From assembly GCA_028864875.1 (NCBI GenBank), contig JAGWLV010000001.1:8288-72287 (forward strand): DNA of 64,000 nt. Direction: 5' to 3'. The notes under the pieces are model-generated. The model was not told the DNA's origin. It ran no database searches and worked only from the letters and a program-made list of their open reading frames with translations. Position 1 is the first letter of the stretch. Each line of letters begins with the position of its first letter. Below, one piece after another: positions 4,258-57,411 of this stretch. This DNA is from Patescibacteria group bacterium (lineage in GTDB: Bacteria > Patescibacteriota > Minisyncoccia > Phycocordibacterales > SBAW01). A program made the position numbers and the translations under genes.

Positions 4258-6353
4258 TCCTCGACCATTATAAGGCCCAATTTATTATTTGAAGAGGCGC
4301 CGGGCACAGACGACCAAATCTCCTCGGTAATAAAGGGCATAAAAGGGTGCAGCAGCTTGAGCGCGCCTTCGAGGATGTAATACAACGTTCCGCCGTACTC
4401 CGGTTTGCCCTTGCTCTCTTCTATAATCTGCGCGGCAAAGCGGTCCCAGAGGTAGTGGTAGAGCTTTTCGCCCGCGAGGTAGATGCGGTACGCCCGCAGA
4501 TCCGCAGTCACGTCGCGCGCGAGCGCATCGAACTCGTCCTTGAGGTCTTGTTTTATCCCGCCCGCGCGCTCTTGGGAGAGTACGTAGCGCGCGATGTTCC
4601 ACACCTTGTTGGAGAAGTTTTTGTACCCGCGCACGCGGTTTTCGTCGAGCTTGATGTCGTTGCCCGGCGCCGCGCCCATAATAAGCGACAGCCGTGTCGC
4701 ATCCGCGCCGTAGCGGTCTATCATATCGAGCGGGTCAATGATGTTGCCTACACTCTTGCTCATTTTGCGGCCCTTGTGGTCACGCACGAGCCCGTGGAGG
4801 TACACGTTTTTAAACGGCACCCGCCCCAGCAAAAACTGGCTCATCAATATCATGCGCGCCACCCAAAAAAAGAGAATATCGTAGCCCGTTTCAAGCAGCT
4901 CTGTAGGGTGGTAGATCTTAAGATCAGCCGTCTGCTCCGGCCACCCCAGGGTCGAGAAGGTCCACAGTCCGGAGGAAAACCACGTGTCGAGCGTATCCGG
5001 GTCCTGCTCCCACCCTGCGCCGGGGGAGTTGGCCTGCACTTTTAATTCTTCGCCGCGATACCACACGGGGATGCGGTGGCCGAACCAGATTTGGCGGCTG
5101 ATGCACCAGTCGCGCAAGTTTTCTATCCAGTGGAAGTAAATCTTTTCGAAGCGCTCCGGGGTGATAGTTGTGGCGCCACTCTGGACCGCCTCGCGCATCA
5201 AATCTTTAAGCGACTTGCCCCCGCGCTCTTTGATGGGTTTGTTGACGTCCACCCACCACTGGAGCTTGGGGAGGGGCTCGATGACGGCCCCTGTGCGCTC
5301 GGCGGTCGAGACGTTTTGTTTAATCTTTTCTTCTTTGATGAGCAAGCCCTGCTCGCGCAGCCACTCTACGACCGCCTCGCGCGCCTCGAGCACCTTTTTG
5401 CCCGCCATCGCGGGGCCCGCTGCGTCGGTCATCCGCGCGTACTCGTTGATGACTTGTACCAAAGGCAGGTTGTTTTTTTGTGCGATGTCCCAGTCTTGCT
5501 GGCTGTGCGCGGGGGTTACGCCGAGCGCCCCTGTACCAAAGGTCGGGTCGACCGACTCGTCGGCAACAATAGCGATGGTGAGCGTCGTGCCTGCAAACGG
5601 CACTTCGAATGTCTGCCCGATGTAGCCCATGTAGCGCGCGTCTTGGGGGTGGACGGCGACCGCGGTATCGCCAAGTTTGGTTTCGGGGCGCGTCGTTGCA
5701 ACCGCGATGGGGAAGTCGGGAGCATATTTAAACGTGTAGAGCGTTGTGTCGCGCTCTTCGTACACCGTTTCGTCGTCGCTGATGGTCGTCTGACCCTTCG
5801 GGTCCCAGTTGACAATGCGATTGCCCCGGTAGATGAGCCCCGCATTGTACATGCGCACAAACGCCTCCATGACCGCCTTGTAGCGCGGAGGATCCATCGT
5901 GTAGGCGTAGCGGCTCCAGTCGAGCGAGCTCCCCATCCGTTTTAATTGGTTGAGGATTATGGACTCGCTTTCTTTGACAAACACGTCGATGCGCTCAAGG
6001 AGTCCTTCGCGCCCCACATCTTTGCGGCTCAAGCCCTCTTTCTTTTCCATTTCTTTCTCAACTTTGCTCTGAGTTGCTATGGCCGCAGAGTCCGTGCCCG
6101 GGATCCACAACACCTTCTTCCCCTGCATGCGCTCAAAGCGCACGATGATGTCCTCGACGGCCAACATCGCCGCGTGCCCCATGTGGAGCGTGCCCGTGAC
6201 ATTGGGGGGCGGCAGGACTATGGAGAAGGGTTCACCGTCTTGTTTGGGGAGATTGTCAGGATTGAAGTAGCCGCTGTCCTCCCACTTCTTATATATAGGC
6301 CCTTCGACCGCGGAGGGGTCATAGGGCTTCAAAAACTTATCCGGCAGAGCCAT
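4242..6353 (-). CDS. valS: Valine--tRNA ligase (short form, 703 aa)
   Basis: Class I aaRS HMGHA (HIGH) and KMSKS motifs, DWCISRQIWFGHRIPVWY signature of ValRS; lacks long C-terminal coiled coil. Confidence 0.9.
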   Translation of the reverse strand: MALPDKFLKPYDPSAVEGPIYKKWEDSGYFNPDNLPKQDGEPFSIVLPPPNVTGTLHMGHAAMLAVEDIIVRFERMQGKKVLWIPGTDSAAIATQSKVEKEMEKKEGLSRKDVGREGLLERIDVFVKESESIILNQLKRMGSSLDWSRYAYTMDPPRYKAVMEAFVRMYNAGLIYRGNRIVNWDPKGQTTISDDETVYEERDTTLYTFKYAPDFPIAVATTRPETKLGDTAVAVHPQDARYMGYIGQTFEVPFAGTTLTIAIVADESVDPTFGTGALGVTPAHSQQDWDIAQKNNLPLVQVINEYARMTDAAGPAMAGKKVLEAREAVVEWLREQGLLIKEEKIKQNVSTAERTGAVIEPLPKLQWWVDVNKPIKERGGKSLKDLMREAVQSGATTITPERFEKIYFHWIENLRDWCISRQIWFGHRIPVWYRGEELKVQANSPGAGWEQDPDTLDTWFSSGLWTFSTLGWPEQTADLKIYHPTELLETGYDILFFWVARMILMSQFLLGRVPFKNVYLHGLVRDHKGRKMSKSVGNIIDPLDMIDRYGADATRLSLIMGAAPGNDIKLDENRVRGYKNFSNKVWNIARYVLSQERAGGIKQDLKDEFDALARDVTADLRAYRIYLAGEKLYHYLWDRFAAQIIEESKGKPEYGGTLYYILEGALKLLHPFMPFITEEIWSSVPGASSNNKLGLIMVEEWPVR

Positions 6354-12551: not shown

Positions 12552-12642
12552 AGTTAGAAGTATACAGCGAAGCGAGCCGAAAGAAGTCGATTAGACTTGG
12601 CCTAGCGGCCCGGAGCGCCGACTTCGTCGGCTTGCGAGCGAA

Positions 12643-22379: not shown

Positions 22380-24926
22380 ATGGCCAAGGACGATAAAAAA
22401 TTGCCGCCCGCAAGCGGTGACATAGGCGATGACCCGTCTCGCCGAGGCGAAGCCGAGGCGGAACACACGGGCATAGTCCTGCGCAACATTTCGACCGAAA
22501 TGCGCGAGGCGTACCTCGACTACGCGATGTCGGTCATCACAAGCCGGGCCCTCCCCGATGTGCGCGACGGACTGAAACCCGTGCACCGCCGCATCCTCTA
22601 CACTATGCACCGGCTGGGGCTCACGCCGACGAGCCGCTTCCGCAAATCGGCGCTGGTCGTCGGTGACGTGCTCGGCAAGTACCACCCGCACGGAGACTCC
22701 GCGGTGTACGACGCGATGGTCAAGATGGCGCAAGAGTTCACCATGCGCTACCCGCTTGTGCTCGGCCAGGGCAACTTCGGTTCAATCGACGGCGACGCCG
22801 CCGCGGCCATGCGCTACACCGAGGCCAAGATGTCGCCGATGGCGATGGAGTTGCTGCGCGACTTGGAAAAAGAGACCGTCGACTGGCTCCCGAACTACGA
22901 CGGCACGCTCAAAGAGCCGAAGGTCCTCCCCGCAGCGGTGCCGAACCTCCTCTTAAACGGCACGCTCGGCATCGCGGTCGGTATGGCGACCAACATCCCG
23001 CCGCATAATCTTAAAGAACTCTCCGACGCTATCATCCATCTCATCGACAACCCGAGCGCGACGGTTGAAGACTTGATGCAGTTTGTGACGGGGCCGGACT
23101 TCCCGGTCGGTGCGGTGGCATTTAATAAAAAAGACCTCCTCCACGCATACTCAACCGGCCGCGGGCCTGTGTCGGTGCGCGGTGTTGCAGACATCATCGA
23201 GGGCAAAAAAGGCGACTTCCAAATCATCATCACCTCGATCCCGTACCGGGTTAATAAAGCCGACCTCATTGTGCGCATCGCCGACCTGGTCCACGAGAAA
23301 AAGCTCGAAGGCGTGCGCGGCTTGCGCGACGAGTCGACCACAGACGTCCGCATTGTCGTCGACCTCAAGCAGGGCGCCCACCCGCAAAAAGTGCTCAACT
23401 ACCTCTACAAGCACACGTCGCTCGAAGACCCGTTCCACTTCAACATGGTTGTGCTCGTTGACGGCGTGCCGCAGACGATGTCCCTGAAGGGCATTTTGCA
23501 GGAGTTTATCAAGCACCGCCGCACGGTGGTCGGGCGCCGCAGCCAGTTTGACCTCAAAAAGGCACAGGACCGCGAGCACATTTTGGCCGGCCTCAAAAAG
23601 GCGCTCGATCACATCGACGAAGTCATCAAGACTATCCGCGCGAGCAAGGATGTCGCCGAAGCGGAGGTCAACCTCATCAAAAAGTTTAAATTTACCGAGC
23701 TCCAAGCCAAGGCAATTTTGGAAATGCGGCTCAGCCGGCTCGCCAACCTCGAGCGCAAAAAAATAGAAGACGAGCTCTCCGAAGTGCAGGCGGCCATTGC
23801 CGAGTTGAGCGACTTGCTGAAGAGCGAAAAGAAGATGTTCGGCGTGGTCAAAAAAGAAACACAAGATATTTCGGCGAAGTTTGGCGATGAGCGCCGCACC
23901 AAGGTGCAGAAGGGCGCCGCGGGCATCATCTCCGAGGAAGACATGGTCGCCGATGCCGAGCAGGTGCTCACGCTGACCGCGGGCGGCTATATCAAGCGCA
24001 CCAACCCGGAGGAGTTCCGCCGCCAAAAGCGCGGGGGTGTCGGCGTCATAGACCTCAACACCAAAGAGGAGGACTTTGTCACCACATTCCTCACCACCTC
24101 GACCCACAGTGACCTGTTGTTCTTTACCAACGCGGGGAAGGCGTTCCAACTCAAGATGTATGAAATCCCGGAGGGCAAGCGCTCGACCAAGGGCAAGGCG
24201 CTGGTCAACTTTCTTTCAATCGGTACGGACGAAGCGGTGACGAGCATTTTGCCGATGCGCAAAGAATATAAAGGCGACCCGTCTCGCCGAGGCGAAGCCG
24301 AGGCGGGGCGCTACCTTGTATTGGTGACCAAAAAGGGGACTATAAAGAAGACCGATGCGGCGGCGTTCCGCGATGTGCGGCGCTCGGGCTTGATTGCGCA
24401 GAAGTTGCAAAAGGGCGACGAGTTGATTGCGGCGCTGTTGGTAGAAAAAGGCGACGATATCTTTTTGAGCTCCGCGAAGGGGCAGTCGATACGGTTTAAA
24501 GAGGCGGACGTGCGCGCGATGGGCCGCGCCGCCGGAGGCGTGCGCGGGATGAAGCTCGGCGCGGGCGACTCGGTCGTCGGGGCGGACGTGGTGCCCAAAG
24601 GCAAAGCGGGCGACAAGCTCGAAGTGCTCGTCGTATCGCGCAACGGCTACGGCAAGGCGACCCCGACGACCGACTACAAAACCCAGGGCCGCGGCGGCTC
24701 GGGCATCAAGACCATGAGTGTGACCGCGAAGACCGGCCCCTTGATCACCTCGCGCATCATCTCCCGCGGCGAGGGCGGGGAGGAGGAGATAGTGGTCGTG
24801 TCCAAAAAAGGCCAAATCATCCGCACGGGGCTCAACGAAGTCAAAACCCAGTCCCGCGCCACGCAGGGCGTGCGCATCATGCGCCTGCGCGACTCCGACT
24901 CCATCGCCTCCTTCGTTTGTTTGTAA
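22380..24926 (+). CDS. gyrA: DNA gyrase subunit A
   Basis: [31 protein letters not shown] signature with catalytic Tyr region, QRDR-like segment, C-terminal beta-pinwheel repeats. Confidence 0.95.
22441..22471 (+). repeat. 31-bp direct repeat copy 1 (gacccgtctcgccgaggcgaagccgaggcgg) inside gyrA
   Basis: Exact match to 24276-24306; encodes [10 protein letters not shown] in frame in the N-terminal tail. Confidence 0.8.
24276..24306 (+). repeat. 31-bp direct repeat copy 2 inside gyrA
   Basis: Exact match to 22441-22471; encodes [10 protein letters not shown] in frame in the C-terminal domain. Confidence 0.8.
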
Positions 24927-25987: not shown

Positions 25988-26024
25988 TCCGCCCGCCTCT
26001 TTACGGGGCGGGCGGTTTGTTTTC
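25988..26024 (+). terminator. Rho-independent terminator
   Basis: ccgcccgcc-tctttac-ggggcgggcgg followed by tttgtttt. Confidence 0.7.
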
Positions 26025-26048
26025 ACTATGATATATCATAGTGAAAAC
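26019..26048. repeat. 30-bp perfect palindrome gttttcactatgatatatcatagtgaaaac (core recurs inside miaA)
   Basis: Self-complementary 30-mer; 19/20-bp core CACTATGATATATCATAGT(G) also at 42148-42166. Confidence 0.8.
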
Positions 26049-34912: not shown

Positions 34913-36097
34913 GTGATGTGGTTTAGAAAGAAGCGGATTTATGCCGATGCGGCGGCTGCGACGCCGTTGAGCGAGAAAGCGCGCGCGGAGATGCTGCGTT
35001 TGCTACCTCTGTATGGCAACCCGGGTGCTATTCATACAGAGGCGCTCGAGGCCAAGCGTGAGCTCGACCTCGCCCGCGCGCGCATCGCGCGCGCAATCGG
35101 CGCGCACGCAGACGAAATCGTCTTCACCGCAAGCGGCACCGAGGCCAACAACCTGGCCCTCCACGGCGCGCGCGGGCACGCCATAACGTCCGCCATAGAG
35201 CACCAGTCGGTGCTCGAGCCCCTGCGCGCGACCGGCGCATCTGTAACCGAGCTGCCGGTAGATAGAGAAGGTGTTATTGATATCGCGCAGTTCAAAGAGT
35301 CGCTGCGCGAGGATACGTCCATCGTTTCAATCCAGTTGGTCAACAGCGAAGTGGGCACGATTCAACCGATACAAGAGCTACGGCGACATATCTCTCGCCG
35401 ACGGCGCTCCGGGCCGCTAGGCCAAGTCCTACCGTCGCCTCAAGATGTGTCGCCTCCACTTTTTCATACGGATGCATCACAGGCGCCGCTGTGGCTGCCT
35501 GTTAATGTCGAGGTGCTCGGGGTCGATCTCTTGACGCTCGATGCACAAAAGATGCTGGGGCCGAAGGGCGTGGGCGCTCTATATATAAGAAGGGGCGTGG
35601 AAGTGCAGCCACTCATACGCGGCGGGGGGCAAGAAGGCGGCCTGCGTGGCGGGACGGAGAATGTGCCCCTCATCGGCGCATTTGCGGTTGCGCTAGAAGA
35701 AGCGCAAAAAGATGTAGAGGCGCGCGCCCTGGGCACAGCCGCCGTGCGCGACTACCTGTGGGGCGAAATCAAGCGCCTCATTCCCGGTGCAATTTTAAAC
35801 GGCCCCGCGCAGGGCGCGCGCCGGAGTCCGAATAATCTGAACATTTCCATCCCTGGACTCGAGGCGCAGATGGCCGTAGTGTCACTCGACGCACAGGGTA
35901 TAGCCGCAGGCACCCGCAGTGCTTGCGACTCGGGGGATGAAGACCCCAGTCACGTTATTGTGGCGCTCGGCACACCGCCTGCGCTCGCAACAAGCGCGGT
36001 GCGCATCACCCTTCTGCCCACGGCGACAGAGGTCGATGCCCGCGCCATCGCCGCGGCCCTCGCGCACGCCGCGGCGCTATACCGGGCGGAGCAATGA
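34913..36097 (+). CDS. Cysteine desulfurase (class V aminotransferase, IscS/NifS-like)
   Basis: PLP-fold, HTDASQA pyridoxal-lysine region, catalytic-Cys loop ...AAGTRSACDSG...; contains an Arg-rich low-complexity insertion. Confidence 0.85.
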   Translation: MMWFRKKRIYADAAAATPLSEKARAEMLRLLPLYGNPGAIHTEALEAKRELDLARARIARAIGAHADEIVFTASGTEANNLALHGARGHAITSAIEHQSVLEPLRATGASVTELPVDREGVIDIAQFKESLREDTSIVSIQLVNSEVGTIQPIQELRRHISRRRRSGPLGQVLPSPQDVSPPLFHTDASQAPLWLPVNVEVLGVDLLTLDAQKMLGPKGVGALYIRRGVEVQPLIRGGGQEGGLRGGTENVPLIGAFAVALEEAQKDVEARALGTAAVRDYLWGEIKRLIPGAILNGPAQGARRSPNNLNISIPGLEAQMAVVSLDAQGIAAGTRSACDSGDEDPSHVIVALGTPPALATSAVRITLLPTATEVDARAIAAALAHAAALYRAEQ

Positions 36098-41557: not shown

Positions 41558-42400
41558 TCAGCGCCCGCTCAGGAATTGTTTTGAAAGTTCGAGAGCTTCG
41601 GCTTTGGTTTTGACCCAGAGGATGTCTTTATTGCGCTTAAACCAGCGCAGTTGGCGCTTGGCGTACTTGCGCTCACCGTTGGCGATTTTGCCGATGAGTT
41701 CTTTTTTTGATATTTTTTTGTCGATATAGTCGCCGAGTAAGTCAAACTCAAACCCCAGTTCCATGTACCGGCGGCGTGGAAGCGCCCCACGCAGTTTTTT
41801 AGCCTCGGCGAGTATGCCGCGCCGCAGCCGGGCTTCTACCCCCGCGCGGAGGTTTCTAGATTCGCGCAGGCCGAGCCACAGCACCTTGTAGCGGCCGTGC
41901 GGTTGCGGCGCGGGCACAGAGCCGAGGGCGCGCGCGACTTCTATAGCGCGGATAAGCCGCACTGTGTTGTGCGGGTCCACGCGCGCGGCGCTCTTCGGGT
42001 CGAGCTGGCGCAGGCGTGCGAGGAGCTGCACCGGCGTCTTTTTGTTCAAAGAAGCACGGAGTTTTTTGTTTGGCACTACCTCCGGCAATCCACCGCGCAG
42101 CAGCGCTTCCGCATAAAACCCCGTCCCGCCGACGACAATGGGGATTTTTTTACTATGATATATCATAGTGATTTTTTTGGCGGCCAACGCGGCGTACGCG
42201 CCCGCGCTCATGGCGCGGCGGGGGTCGGCGATGCCGACCATGTGGCCCGCTTCGGCACGCGAAATGACCTTCATACCTTTGTAAATTTGCCGACTGTCGG
42301 CGGAAATTACTTCGCCGCGCAATTTTTGTGCAAGAAAATCGCCGAGGGCGGACTTGCCCGAAGCGGTGGGGCCAACGACTGCTATTACCTTTGGGCGCAT
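41558..42400 (-). CDS. miaA: tRNA dimethylallyltransferase MiaA
   Basis: P-loop VVGPTASGKS, ADSRQIYKGMKV, IVVGGTGFY motifs of MiaA. Confidence 0.9.
   Translation of the reverse strand: MRPKVIAVVGPTASGKSALGDFLAQKLRGEVISADSRQIYKGMKVISRAEAGHMVGIADPRRAMSAGAYAALAAKKITMIYHSKKIPIVVGGTGFYAEALLRGGLPEVVPNKKLRASLNKKTPVQLLARLRQLDPKSAARVDPHNTVRLIRAIEVARALGSVPAPQPHGRYKVLWLGLRESRNLRAGVEARLRRGILAEAKKLRGALPRRRYMELGFEFDLLGDYIDKKISKKELIGKIANGERKYAKRQLRWFKRNKDILWVKTKAEALELSKQFLSGR
42148..42166. repeat. 19-bp copy of the CACTATGATATATCATAGT palindromic core, in frame inside miaA
   Basis: Matches the 26019-26048 palindrome core; encodes ...ITMIYHS... flanked by Lys-Lys (A-runs). Confidence 0.75.
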
Positions 42401-56118: not shown

Positions 56119-57411
56119 CTACTCCATCGTCACTTTCTTGTCTTTCAGGAATAACTTGCTCTGCAAGCATCCAAGCAATTCCCGTTTCTCTACCAGGGTT
56201 CCTTCCCTGAGCAGGTACTTCGTGTAATTCCGAACGTCCACGTCTATCTCGACTTTGTCCTGCTTGTGCCCGAGTACTCCTGACTGAAATTTGTTGAACC
56301 GCCGTATTTCTTCTTCGATCCGTGTCCGTACTCCCAACTCATCCAAATTTACCGTATCCATCAATCCAATTAGTTCATCAATCAGGCTCGGCTCGTTGAT
56401 CGGTGGATTCTTGCAATCGATATTCCGAGCCTTTGTGCAGAAGTAATATACATGGCGATTCACACCGCCACTCTTGAGCTTCTTGAATTTTTCGTCAGCT
56501 GATATACCCGAGCCGCAGTAGCCGCATCGCACGAGCTTGGTGAAGGCGAACTCCTTGCTCTCGGTTTTGGGTATGAAATTTTCGTTGAGCGTCATCTGTA
56601 CCTTCTCATACAGCTGTTTGTCGATGATTGGCGTATGCTTGCCGGTGTACCATTGACCACCCCCGACCGGGTATTCAAATTCACCCGAGTAGAAGGGGTT
56701 CCGCAGAATGACGTAGACATTCGCGAGCACGAGCGGTTTTCCTCCCGTTGTTTTGAAGTCAATCTCTCGGAGCCATCGGTATACTTTCCGTCCGCTCCAC
56801 TGTTCGTGCGCTACCTTCTCGAACATCTGTTTGATCACAGGCGCGCGCTTTGGGTCGATCCGGCACTGACATTTCTTGTCGACATGCTTTTCATTGAGAT
56901 ACCCAGTCGGGGCAGGGCCGGGCCTCCAACCCATCTCGCATCGTGTTCTCAGCCCGCGCTTCACGTTTACCGCCTTGTTGTCGTTTTCGAGCTTCGCCTG
57001 CGAACCCAGAATCATTAGTAGGAATTTTTCGTTCGGATTGTTTGTGAATCTCTGTCCGTATGTACGGATTTCATGGAGTAACTTTTGGTCCATCAGGTCC
57101 ACGACTGACCCCAGGTCACCGGCATTGCGACTCAGGCGATCTGGTGCCCACGTGAGTATTGCGTTGAACTTCTTCGACCGGATATCCTCCAACATTTGGT
57201 TGTAGACCGGACGTTGGCCGACCTCTTTAGATGAGTGGGCCTCACGCTTAATCTCGACAATATGCAAACACTCTCGCTCGGCTAGCGCCTGCATTTCTTT
57301 CACCTGGCTCTCGATTGATAATGCTTGCTTATCTTCCGCCTCAGTACTTTTGCGTGCATAGAGGCAGTACCGTAAGGCCTCCTGTGGTTGTGTTTTTTCC
57401 ATACACCACAA
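56119..57411 (-). CDS. Large serine recombinase (phage-integrase type)
   Basis: Resolvase catalytic domain YARKSTEAE...SIESQ, recombinase domain, C-terminal zinc ribbon CGYCG...YYFC; 430 aa; AT-rich codon usage. Confidence 0.9.
   Translation of the reverse strand: MWCMEKTQPQEALRYCLYARKSTEAEDKQALSIESQVKEMQALAERECLHIVEIKREAHSSKEVGQRPVYNQMLEDIRSKKFNAILTWAPDRLSRNAGDLGSVVDLMDQKLLHEIRTYGQRFTNNPNEKFLLMILGSQAKLENDNKAVNVKRGLRTRCEMGWRPGPAPTGYLNEKHVDKKCQCRIDPKRAPVIKQMFEKVAHEQWSGRKVYRWLREIDFKTTGGKPLVLANVYVILRNPFYSGEFEYPVGGGQWYTGKHTPIIDKQLYEKVQMTLNENFIPKTESKEFAFTKLVRCGYCGSGISADEKFKKLKSGGVNRHVYYFCTKARNIDCKNPPINEPSLIDELIGLMDTVNLDELGVRTRIEEEIRRFNKFQSGVLGHKQDKVEIDVDVRNYTKYLLREGTLVEKRELLGCLQSKLFLKDKKVTME

Follow-up and report, generated by a model that had tools for sequence, protein, structure and literature searches.

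Short palindromic repeats that settle inside bacterial genes have been described in several forms. Repetitive extragenic palindromes (REPs) tagged by GTAG or CGTC have been reported in over 80 species of eight phyla (Di Nocera, De Gregorio & Rocco, 2013, BMC Genomics 14:522; PMC3733652). According to the part of that survey used here, REPs lie inside open reading frames (ORFs) in several species, many of them in replication and repair genes or in tRNA synthetase genes; single genes can carry double insertions (R. conorii uvrB and O. terrae uvrA), and the R. conorii repeats RPE-4 and RPE-6 are classed as CGTC REPs. Neither gyrase nor topoisomerase was found in those of its supplements that were searched. 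Rickettsia palindromic elements (RPEs; Ogata et al., 2000, Science 290:347), as summarized in the sections of PMC10969869 and PMC3733652 used here, are palindromic in-frame inserts in many housekeeping genes, which are translated, are compatible with function and are regarded as selfish DNA. Intragenic MITEs (transposable elements of the miniature inverted-repeat type), such as the Coxiella QMITE, ERIC and Correia elements, are non-autonomous, carry inverted repeats and can give rise to in-frame ORF fusions (PMC10969869, PMC5896051). Here, we describe a 30-nt element, family A, that is found twice in the gyrA gene of a Patescibacteria group bacterium; the stretch analysed, referred to as the window, comprises 64,000 nt of contig JAGWLV010000001.1 (assembly GCA_028864875.1, positions 8,288 to 72,287). 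We consider it probable that the two gyrA segments are copies of a REP-like non-autonomous palindromic element that occurs in low copy number across the Patescibacteria, or candidate phyla radiation (CPR), and is translated as loop insertions.

The 64-kb window contains the 31-mer GACCCGTCTCGCCGAGGCGAAGCCGAGGCGG exactly twice. Both copies are on the plus strand and in frame within one ORF, where each encodes the same decapeptide; the start-to-start spacing is 1845 nt, or 615 codons. No third copy is present in the window at up to 3 mismatches or at up to 8 substitutions, and 100 dinucleotide-preserving shuffles of the window gave 0 matches. The original prediction, made from the sequence of the window, had proposed an exact 31-bp direct repeat lying twice in frame in gyrA, internally a duplication of the core GCCGAGGCG and not due to chance; all of this is borne out, the two copies lying on the plus strand of one ORF of 848 aa. 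Its position for the second copy (24276-24306) was right; the first, given as 22441-22471, actually lies at 22431-22461, a slip of 10 nt in which 22441 is the start of the GCCGAGGCG core. The host is DNA gyrase subunit A: the protein carries PF00521 and the PF03989 repeats, is 100% identical to the NCBI entry 'DNA gyrase subunit A [Patescibacteria group bacterium]' from a 75.7-kb contig, and has as its best match in the PDB the GyrA entry 8s7k, which aligns over the full length (residues 36-844, E = 2.8e-215). The features of the gene are as follows.

22380..24926, + strand: gyrA ORF, 848 aa, host of both copies (ORF list, NCBI identity, Pfam and 8s7k).
22431..22461, + strand: 31-nt repeat, copy 1, in the variable N-terminal tail, aa 18-27 (exact match).
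22433..22462, + strand: inferred 30-nt unit of copy 1 (C + 28-mer + A), read as GAT GA[C CCG..GCG GA]A CAC (by analogy with loci L036 and L025, see below).
22434..22441, + strand: left arm CCGTCTCG of copy 1, pairing with 22454-22461 with one T:G pair (imperfect inverted repeat).
22454..22461, + strand: right arm CGAGGCGG of copy 1 (imperfect inverted repeat).
24276..24306, + strand: 31-nt repeat, copy 2, in a beta-pinwheel loop of the C-terminal domain, aa 633-642 (exact match).
24278..24307, + strand: inferred 30-nt unit of copy 2 (C + 28-mer + G), read as GGC GA[C CCG..GCG GG]G CGC (by comparison of GyrA P0090, filled, with P0102, empty).
24279..24286, + strand: left arm CCGTCTCG of copy 2, pairing with 24299-24306 (imperfect inverted repeat).
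24299..24306, + strand: right arm CGAGGCGG of copy 2 (imperfect inverted repeat).

The junction of the copy 1 unit is ambiguous by up to 3 nt. Around copy 2 the pairing is prolonged by the flanks (GCG.CCCGTCTCG / CGAGGCGGG.CGC). A PSRRG peptide match at position 56685 of the window is a chance one: it shows no DNA similarity and falls within a minus-strand ORF.

None of 26 aligned GyrA orthologues (76-81% identity) has either decapeptide segment and the eight nearest relatives carry no insert; on this alignment both segments in the window are lineage-specific insertions, as had been supposed. At the copy 1 site the relatives have the native sequence ..D-E-H-(S/T)-G-I-V-L-R-N within an N-terminal tail of variable length. 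This tail had been called an unusual extension, which it is not: all close orthologues have a variable tail of 20-30 aa starting MA(K/D).., and the 10-residue insert alone is lineage-specific. Copy 2 lies between ..VTS(I/V)LPMRK.. and ..(F/Y)L(Y/V)(M/L)(I/V)TK.., where the relatives read K-E-G-E-(K/R)-F and where the alignment with the solved structure 8s7k has a 10-residue gap. The AlphaFold model obtained from a 27-sequence alignment is poor (mean predicted local distance difference test score, pLDDT, of 52) and places residues 626-642, with low confidence, between two strands.

Short inserts with related peptides are found at several sites among the 120 best GyrA matches surveyed. P0090 (Ca. 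Adlerbacteria) has GACCCGTCTCGCCAAGGCGGAGCCGAGGCGG at the same C-terminal domain (CTD) loop as copy 2, with 2 mismatches and, like copy 2, read as GGC GA[C..GG]G CGC, and this element was found on three contigs; in P0102, which is 92% identical to P0090, the loop is empty with the native G-E-R. It is the element DNA that is near-identical here and the flanks that have diverged, which is the opposite of orthologues that share the residues over diverged DNA. P0117 has GACCCGTCTCGCCGAGGCCGAGCCGAGGCGG, again with 2 mismatches, in the 'tower' loop of the N-terminal domain (native E-G-K-K-G-D); it reads GGC GA[C..GG]C TAC, the native sequence being G-D-Y as in P0070. The gyrA genes of L025 and L036 are ∼90% identical in DNA and each has a copy at aa ∼500, where a linker joins the N-terminal domain to the CTD, in the context WAKKFAD[10 protein letters not shown]DRRTKV; this linker copy is absent from P0087, P0063 and P0015, which are 93-97% identical to them. 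L036, unlike L025, also carries one in its N-terminal tail, at the site that copy 1 occupies in the window: L036 reads ..GGCAGCGAC|CCGTCTCGCCGGGGCGAAGACGAGGCGGAC|CATTCC.. and L025 reads ..GGCAGCGAC|CACTCC.., a difference of exactly 30 nt, gained or lost. The tail insert of L036 reads GCGAC|CCGTCTCG..GGCGGAC|CA, with a junction that is ambiguous within the 3-nt GAC overlap. As a comparison of two sequences, this filled and empty pair proves a precise 30-nt insertion. The in-frame insertion of a short mobile or recombinogenic repeat that had been suggested for the window is supported by the orthologue alignment, by the other gyrA sites, by copies in unrelated genes and by this pair; that the repeat belongs to a widespread family, and that intragenic REPs set a precedent for its behaviour, went beyond that suggestion.

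The presence of inserts is patchy and their turnover fast. In a GyrA clade of 95-99% identity the same two loops hold family A, one of two other hairpin families (B or E, listed below) or nothing.

P0117 and P0119: tower loop, family A; CTD loop, family E.
P0074, P0076 and P0083: tower loop, none; CTD loop, family B.
P0104: tower loop, family B; CTD loop, family B.
P0070: tower loop, none; CTD loop, none.

At the linker site P0082 has a decayed family-A copy, GACTCGTCTCGCCGTGGCGGGGATGAAACGGGTGAC, with changes that are mostly GC to AT. One element is found twice in a gyrA gene in three lineages: the window (A and A, identical over 31 nt), L036 (A and A, 2 mismatches) and P0104 (B and B). The two family-B copies of P0104 are at L003 4882-4926 (tower loop) and 5986-6033 (the same CTD loop), and relatives that are 96-97% identical have one or none. 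The doublings in the three gyrA lineages are independent. As there are only one or two strict copies per genome elsewhere and gyrA makes up ∼0.25% of a ∼1-Mb genome (our own estimate), repeated doubling in this one gene is non-random. Either the element is re-inserted or copied locally, or gyrA is favoured as a target or unusually tolerant as a host; in the window the second copy most likely came from the first by local re-insertion or copying.

The family-A consensus is C-CCGTCTCGCC-AA-GGC-GAA-GCCGAGGCGG-R, a unit of 30 nt or ten codons that encodes the hydrophilic decapeptide (D)PSR(Q/R)G(E/G)AEA(G/E). Its GC content is 77%, compared with 33-46% in many of the host contigs, which gives it a foreign character. 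The well defined cases have the unit C + 28-mer + R within a GA^N Asp/Glu codon. Over 64 instances, position -1 is C in 64/64, position -2 is A in 52/64 and position +1 is always a purine; past ∼3 nt the flanks of different copies are unrelated. A target-site duplication of at least 3 nt is missing in 41/64, and the remaining flanking repeats vary from 3 to 12 nt. The hairpin is a feature of the sequence, and two folds are predicted: an outer stem of 8-9 bp, CC(C)GTCTCG/CGAGGCGG(G), with one T:G pair, and an alternative fold CGTC-T-[CGCC GA GGC]-GAA-[GCC GA GGCG], i.e. CGTC-T-[CGCCGAGGC]-GAA-[GCCGAGGCG]. Copy 2 with its flanks has a folding energy of -13.2 kcal/mol (z = -1.78). The inner palindrome is inverted in some copies (GGCGAAGCC to GGCTTCGCC), and in AT-rich genomes the 28-nt core has subfamily flanks, namely CGAATTA or CAAAAT direct repeats on either side or an inverted partial second copy. 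No family in Rfam covers the element. It is free of stop codons in all six frames, which was discarded as a designed property since the same is true of 62% of composition-matched shuffles.

To survey the family, we scanned DNA with the pattern CCGTCTCGCCNNGGCNNNGCCGAGGCGG, in which 23 of the 28 bases are fixed, stem bases included. One genome per species (∼185,000 species genomes) gave 17 loci and a metagenome collection, scanned separately, gave 62 more; 64 unique instances are left after the removal of duplicates. Strict copies number one or two per genome and are present in 15 of the ∼185,000 species genomes, from a pattern that may undercount diverged copies. The genome hits are in Parcubacteria, Saccharibacteria, Azam-, Kaiser-, Adler- and Giovannonibacteria metagenome-assembled genomes (MAGs) and in MAGs labelled Nanoarchaeia and Gammaproteobacteria, all labels being as deposited. 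A collection of viral contigs gave 0 family-A matches and thus no evidence of a phage vector. A protein search with concatenated peptide variants returned 892 word-sharing candidates, 0 of them at E ≤ 10, and was uninformative.

Open frames of at least 100 aa hold 49 of the 64 unique instances. The hosts confirmed by Pfam comprise NusA (four instances), a PPDK/PEP-synthase-type enzyme, an AMP-binding enzyme, PurF, ArgRS, a GT2 glycosyltransferase, a Mur ligase, GlyRS, IF-2 and DnaG, together with TsaD, UvrB, an AP endonuclease, PurT, ribosomal protein L21, a ProRS-like C-terminus, DNA Pol III delta', TrmD, LeuRS and BipA. Orthologous copies in LeuRS, ProRS and NusA come from different samples. 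GyrA is the commonest host, with six instances at four sites; two of these are the window's own and one (L005) was found via GyrA, and few independent events lie behind its standing as an enriched host. In ORFs of 150 aa or more that extend for 15 aa or more beyond the element on either side, 36 of 37 copies are on the sense strand (P = 3e-10), and the single frame PSRxGxAEA accounts for 31 of the 37 (P = 6e-19). Copies outside long ORFs have no such orientation: of the ORFs next to them, up to 400 nt away, 9 are on the same strand and 17 on the opposite strand. The bias is found within genes but not between genes, and selection therefore filters insertions: rather than a property of the insertion step, it would be a survival filter on a hydrophilic, near-neutral decapeptide in a tolerant loop.

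Some of the copies are found in other settings. L083 has two (499-526 and 1024-1051) with the loop variant CCACGGCATCGC and conserved AT-rich flanks, in consecutive spacers of a ribosomal-protein operon (L6-S8-S14-L5 region) and antisense to the genes. The sole tandem case is a diverged pair in L026 (3366-3395 and 3403-3432) with the 7-nt spacer AAAATTC and a 37-nt period. Intergenic copies in L006 (2323-2622) and L061 (900-1445; also L057) lie ∼20-170 nt from small GIY-YIG-type ORFs beside tRNA genes; this proximity could be a coincidence or a lead to a mobilizing nuclease. Contigs binned outside the CPR carry copies at L011 and L021 (MAG labelled Nanoarchaeia) and at L007 and L019 (MAG labelled Gammaproteobacteria). 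L011 is likely to be mis-binned, as its 1183-aa open frame has a start that, by eye, resembles the bacterial RNA polymerase beta subunit; if the Nanoarchaeia and Gammaproteobacteria labels are right, the element would cross domains.

Family A is like the intragenic REPs, which in the part of PMC3733652 used here are 20-40-nt GC-rich imperfect palindromes that lie between genes or wholly in ORFs and encode short peptides, with hosts rich in replication and repair genes and tRNA synthetases and with two distant insertions in some ORFs. The CGTC REPs are defined by a terminal CGTC (or TGTC/CCTC) that takes no part in pairing. Family A has CGTC near the 5' end, at element positions 3-6 (C-C-CGTC-T..); this CGTC is unpaired only in the alternative fold and is paired in the outer-stem fold, and its bases were fixed by the search pattern. 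The stem, however, starts with C/G or T:G and not A/T, the loop is 3 nt (GAA) or 12 nt and not 4-5 nt, and in place of a CCA tail there is R and then variable sequence. With the CGTC present but the rest of the definition missed, family A is not filed as a member of the CGTC REPs. Nor does it have the GTAG tag, an unpaired GT(A/G)G at one end: there is no GTAG on either strand, the 5' flank being (G)AC and the 3' flank a purine. By the broad usage of the term, it is a short G+C-rich imperfect palindrome but is neither high in copy number nor mainly extragenic. One or two copies per genome compare with the tens to thousands given for tagged REPs in the same part of the survey, and a mostly intragenic location (49/64) with an intragenic minority; its near-identical sequence, common to very distant lineages, is a further difference. 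The CPR are not mentioned in that part of the survey. The systems formed by REPs and REP-associated tyrosine transposases (RAYTs) share with family A short hairpins without target-site duplication and a proposed mobilization in trans by an HUH/Y1 transposase. Unlike the REPtrons, family A has no GTAG head, and no RAYT flanked by family-A copies was found in the window or in 610 kb of element-bearing DNA.

The likeness to the RPEs lies in the palindrome and in the in-frame insertion into unrelated housekeeping ORFs, translation being predicted here. RPE-1, as far as the cited sources describe it, is ∼100-150 bp long, restricted to Rickettsia and present in tens of copies per genome, whereas family A is low-copy and found in many CPR lineages; with a 30-nt unit and Patescibacteria MAGs as hosts, it falls outside the RPEs by size and lineage; no relationship in sequence was seen, though none was searched for. 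MITEs are 50-500 bp in length and usually AT-rich, and have terminal inverted repeats and target-site duplications, while the GC-rich family A has inverted arms but no consistent duplication of a fixed length (the overlap in the L036/L025 pair is at most 3 nt). Family A is a very small, mainly intragenic, REP/RPE-like selfish palindromic repeat, of a kind already known and in a form that is new in the CPR. It differs from the intragenic REPs and RPEs in its 30-nt length, its low copy number, its mostly intragenic location in one dominant frame and its near-identical copies across distant CPR lineages. An incomplete literature search found no earlier description of such elements in the CPR. The GC clusters and double-hairpin elements of fungal mitochondria are likewise short GC-rich palindromic mobile clusters in AT-rich compact genomes and are occasionally in frame; they are organellar, with other sequences and another presumed mechanism, and are an analogy only.

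HUH/Y1 transposases (RAYTs) are thought to mobilize REP hairpins as single-stranded DNA without target duplications (PMC3733652, in the part used here). Family A would similarly insert with no target-site duplication, the insertion point lying within a GA^N codon in the best-defined cases, and its mobility may depend on a trans-acting enzyme, for which a RAYT-like HUH/Y1 transposase acting on the hairpin as single-stranded DNA is a candidate. The copies that persist in gene-dense genomes are mainly those in sense orientation and in one frame, by which housekeeping proteins would gain a hydrophilic decapeptide in a loop or tail that tolerates it. In the gyrA of the window, one copy occupies the disordered N-terminal tail and the other the CTD beta-pinwheel loop, and the inserts are presumably near-neutral for GyrA. 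A search for Y1_Tnp-like ORFs covered 610 kb of element-bearing CPR DNA and, with probe sequences composed by hand, the window. At L064 4750-5400 purD- and purN-like genes enclose a 137-aa Y1 transposase (PF01797, HUH motif HVHIIF). Inverted GTAG-headed hairpins GTAGCGTGCCGATTTATCGGCTG, at least five copies in 650 nt, lie on both sides of it: a classical REPtron. The transposase gene is 1.7 kb from a family-A copy in purF, and its repeats are not family A.

Several observations weigh against a mobile, translated REP-like element. No RAYT was found to be linked to family A, the L064 gene with its different REPs being the sole Y1_Tnp ORF in the 610 kb, and the hand-composed probes detected no Y1_Tnp-like ORF in the window. 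The low copy number is unlike that of classical REPs and MITEs and makes an active transposition cycle less obvious. The folding energy of the 31-mer is no better than that of its shuffles (z = -0.28). A pattern with so many fixed bases gives a narrow view of the diversity, copy number and conservation of family A. Translation of the inserts is predicted only, the strong single-frame bias could also mean selection of the peptide itself, and the GyrA of the window is represented by a single contig in a one-member cluster.

A spread without any transposase would fit the missing enzyme and the want of a consistent target-site duplication. Repair- or replication-templated copying (template switching, gene conversion or microhomology), followed by recombination after DNA uptake, would then distribute the element, and in gyrA the first copy would have served as the template for the second. 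The shared upstream GGCGA context of the window copies (GGCGATGA|C and GGCGA|C) and the 3-nt GAC overlap in L036 fit microhomology; doubling of one element in one gene in three lineages is expected if the template must be nearby, and CGTC-type REPs are reported without a dedicated transposase in the part of PMC3733652 used here. The precise 30-nt unit, however, has the same ends in unrelated genes and lineages (the -1 C and +1 purine are invariant), which points to a defined element end; the flanks of different copies are unrelated past ∼3 nt, and homologous recombination of a 30-nt patch across lineages needs flanking homology, which is absent between unrelated host genes. We regard templated spread as unlikely, although it is the strongest of the alternatives. 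Less probable still is that the decapeptide or its RNA hairpin recurs by virtue of its function, as a module kept by selection for, say, interaction, regulation or stability. The extreme one-frame and sense-strand bias within genes would agree with this, as would the recurrence in GyrA (four sites), NusA, LeuRS and ProRS and the high conservation of the element between distant lineages; this conservation is, however, in part ascertainment, the pattern having fixed 23 bases. Relatives that are up to 92-97% identical lack the insert and are evidently functional, the same loops take the unrelated hairpin families B, C and E with different peptides, the host enzymes are functionally unrelated, copies are also found in other frames, on the opposite strand and between genes, and a decayed copy exists (P0082).

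An assembly or sequencing artefact, or a chance repeat, would draw on the single contig of the window GyrA and is very improbable indeed: the exact 31-mer pair was never reproduced in the 100 shuffles, both inserts are exactly in frame with contiguous conserved GyrA on either side, a repeat of 31 nt is too short, relative to k-mer sizes, to make an assembly collapse, and the same element is found at the same sites in independent assemblies (P0090 on its three contigs, L025 and L036, and the LeuRS, ProRS and NusA copies). Other kinds of repeat were also considered. The DNA uptake sequences of Neisseria are biased towards genome-maintenance genes; an uptake sequence is ruled out here by the copy number of one or two per genome. 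A CRISPR or TIGR-like array is ruled out by the solitary copies, the only tandem case having a 7-nt spacer (L026). No feature supports a diversity-generating retroelement, an intein or RNA-level excision, and all of the inserts keep the frame.

Other inserts in gyrA and in further hosts are likewise GC-rich hairpins with a length that is a multiple of three.

Family B: CCCCGAC-loop-GTCGGGGCCCCGACCGAAGCGTCGGGG, a double hairpin of 45-48 nt, in gyrA; peptide QPRRQGVGAPTEASGK.
Family C: TCCGCCAAAGGCGGACCAGCC(TTA/AAG)GGCTGG, 30 nt, two hairpins, peptide SAKGGPALGW; common to two CPR lineages, in GyrA P0094 and in the Giovannonibacteria LeuRS of L020 (SAKGGPAKGW).
Family D: CCCGCCTCG..CGAGGCGGG, 39 nt, in UvrB (L009); peptide PASTRGDSSTRGG; terminal arms as in family A.
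Family E: CC(C)TGCCTGCCGGC(G)GGCAGG, in gyrA P0117; peptide KKGALPAGGQG; four further loci have it in near-identical form, CCTGCCTGCCGGCAGGCAGG.
A 21-nt hairpin, CTTGGCGGCGAAGCCGCCAAG: immediately adjacent to a family-A copy in LeuRS.
L086 4276-4305: among the further sites of codon-length hairpin families.

At least six family peptides can be counted: PSRQGEAEAG of family A, those of B, C, D and E, and LGGEAAKLG. The Giovannonibacteria LeuRS (L020 713-4258, 1182 aa) has embedded NUDIX and Ser_hydrolase domains as well as three hairpin inserts.

The window itself holds two further repeats. The 27-mer GACTTGGCCTAGCGGCCCGGAGCGCCG is present at 12594-12620 (+ strand), between a trxB-like ORF and ftsZ, and, inverted and exact with unrelated flanks, at 35402-35428; the latter copy is in frame as RRSGPLGQV within a cysteine-desulfurase-like ORF (34913..36097), in an apparent extra segment SRRRRSGPLGQVLPSPQDVSPP. 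The 610 kb of other CPR loci contain no relatives of this 27-mer. The pair is probably the same kind of event as the gyrA inserts. A 25-nt AT-rich perfect palindrome, TCACTATGATATATCATAGTGA, occurs at 26023-26047 and 42147-42171 (96%) in intergenic DNA flanked by A/T runs, beside GC-rich hairpins; it has the look of an operator or regulatory site in common use and is not related to the gyrA element.

A broader picture, which we put forward tentatively and think rather doubtful as a whole, is that CPR bacteria harbour a guild of codon-length (21-48 nt) GC-rich hairpin elements that live mainly as translated loop inserts in essential genes. Such elements would turn over rapidly at hot-spot loops, re-insert locally within a gene and pass from one lineage to another distant one; no smaller gene-resident mobile elements would be known, and they would account for a major part of the variation in protein length in these minimal genomes, and gyrA would perhaps be a preferred target via a link between hairpins or cruciforms and gyrase. 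Family A lends itself to the question of how REP-like hairpins move when they have no dedicated transposase, with the L025/L036 pair and the L064 RAYT as starting points. Being 1845 nt apart in an essential gene, the two 31-nt direct repeats could also serve as substrate for an in-frame deletion of 615 codons, which would presumably be lethal and be purged. The hairpin inserts are a warning for automated annotation and alignment, and in phylogenetic markers (gyrA, aminoacyl-tRNA synthetases and ribosomal proteins) independent insertions in the same loop can mimic shared ancestry. They give a concrete and testable origin for many of the lineage-specific indels in CPR housekeeping proteins. CPR genomes are tiny and gene-dense and leave little room for repeats; the findings suggest that repeats survive there as ten-codon units in tolerant loops of essential proteins.

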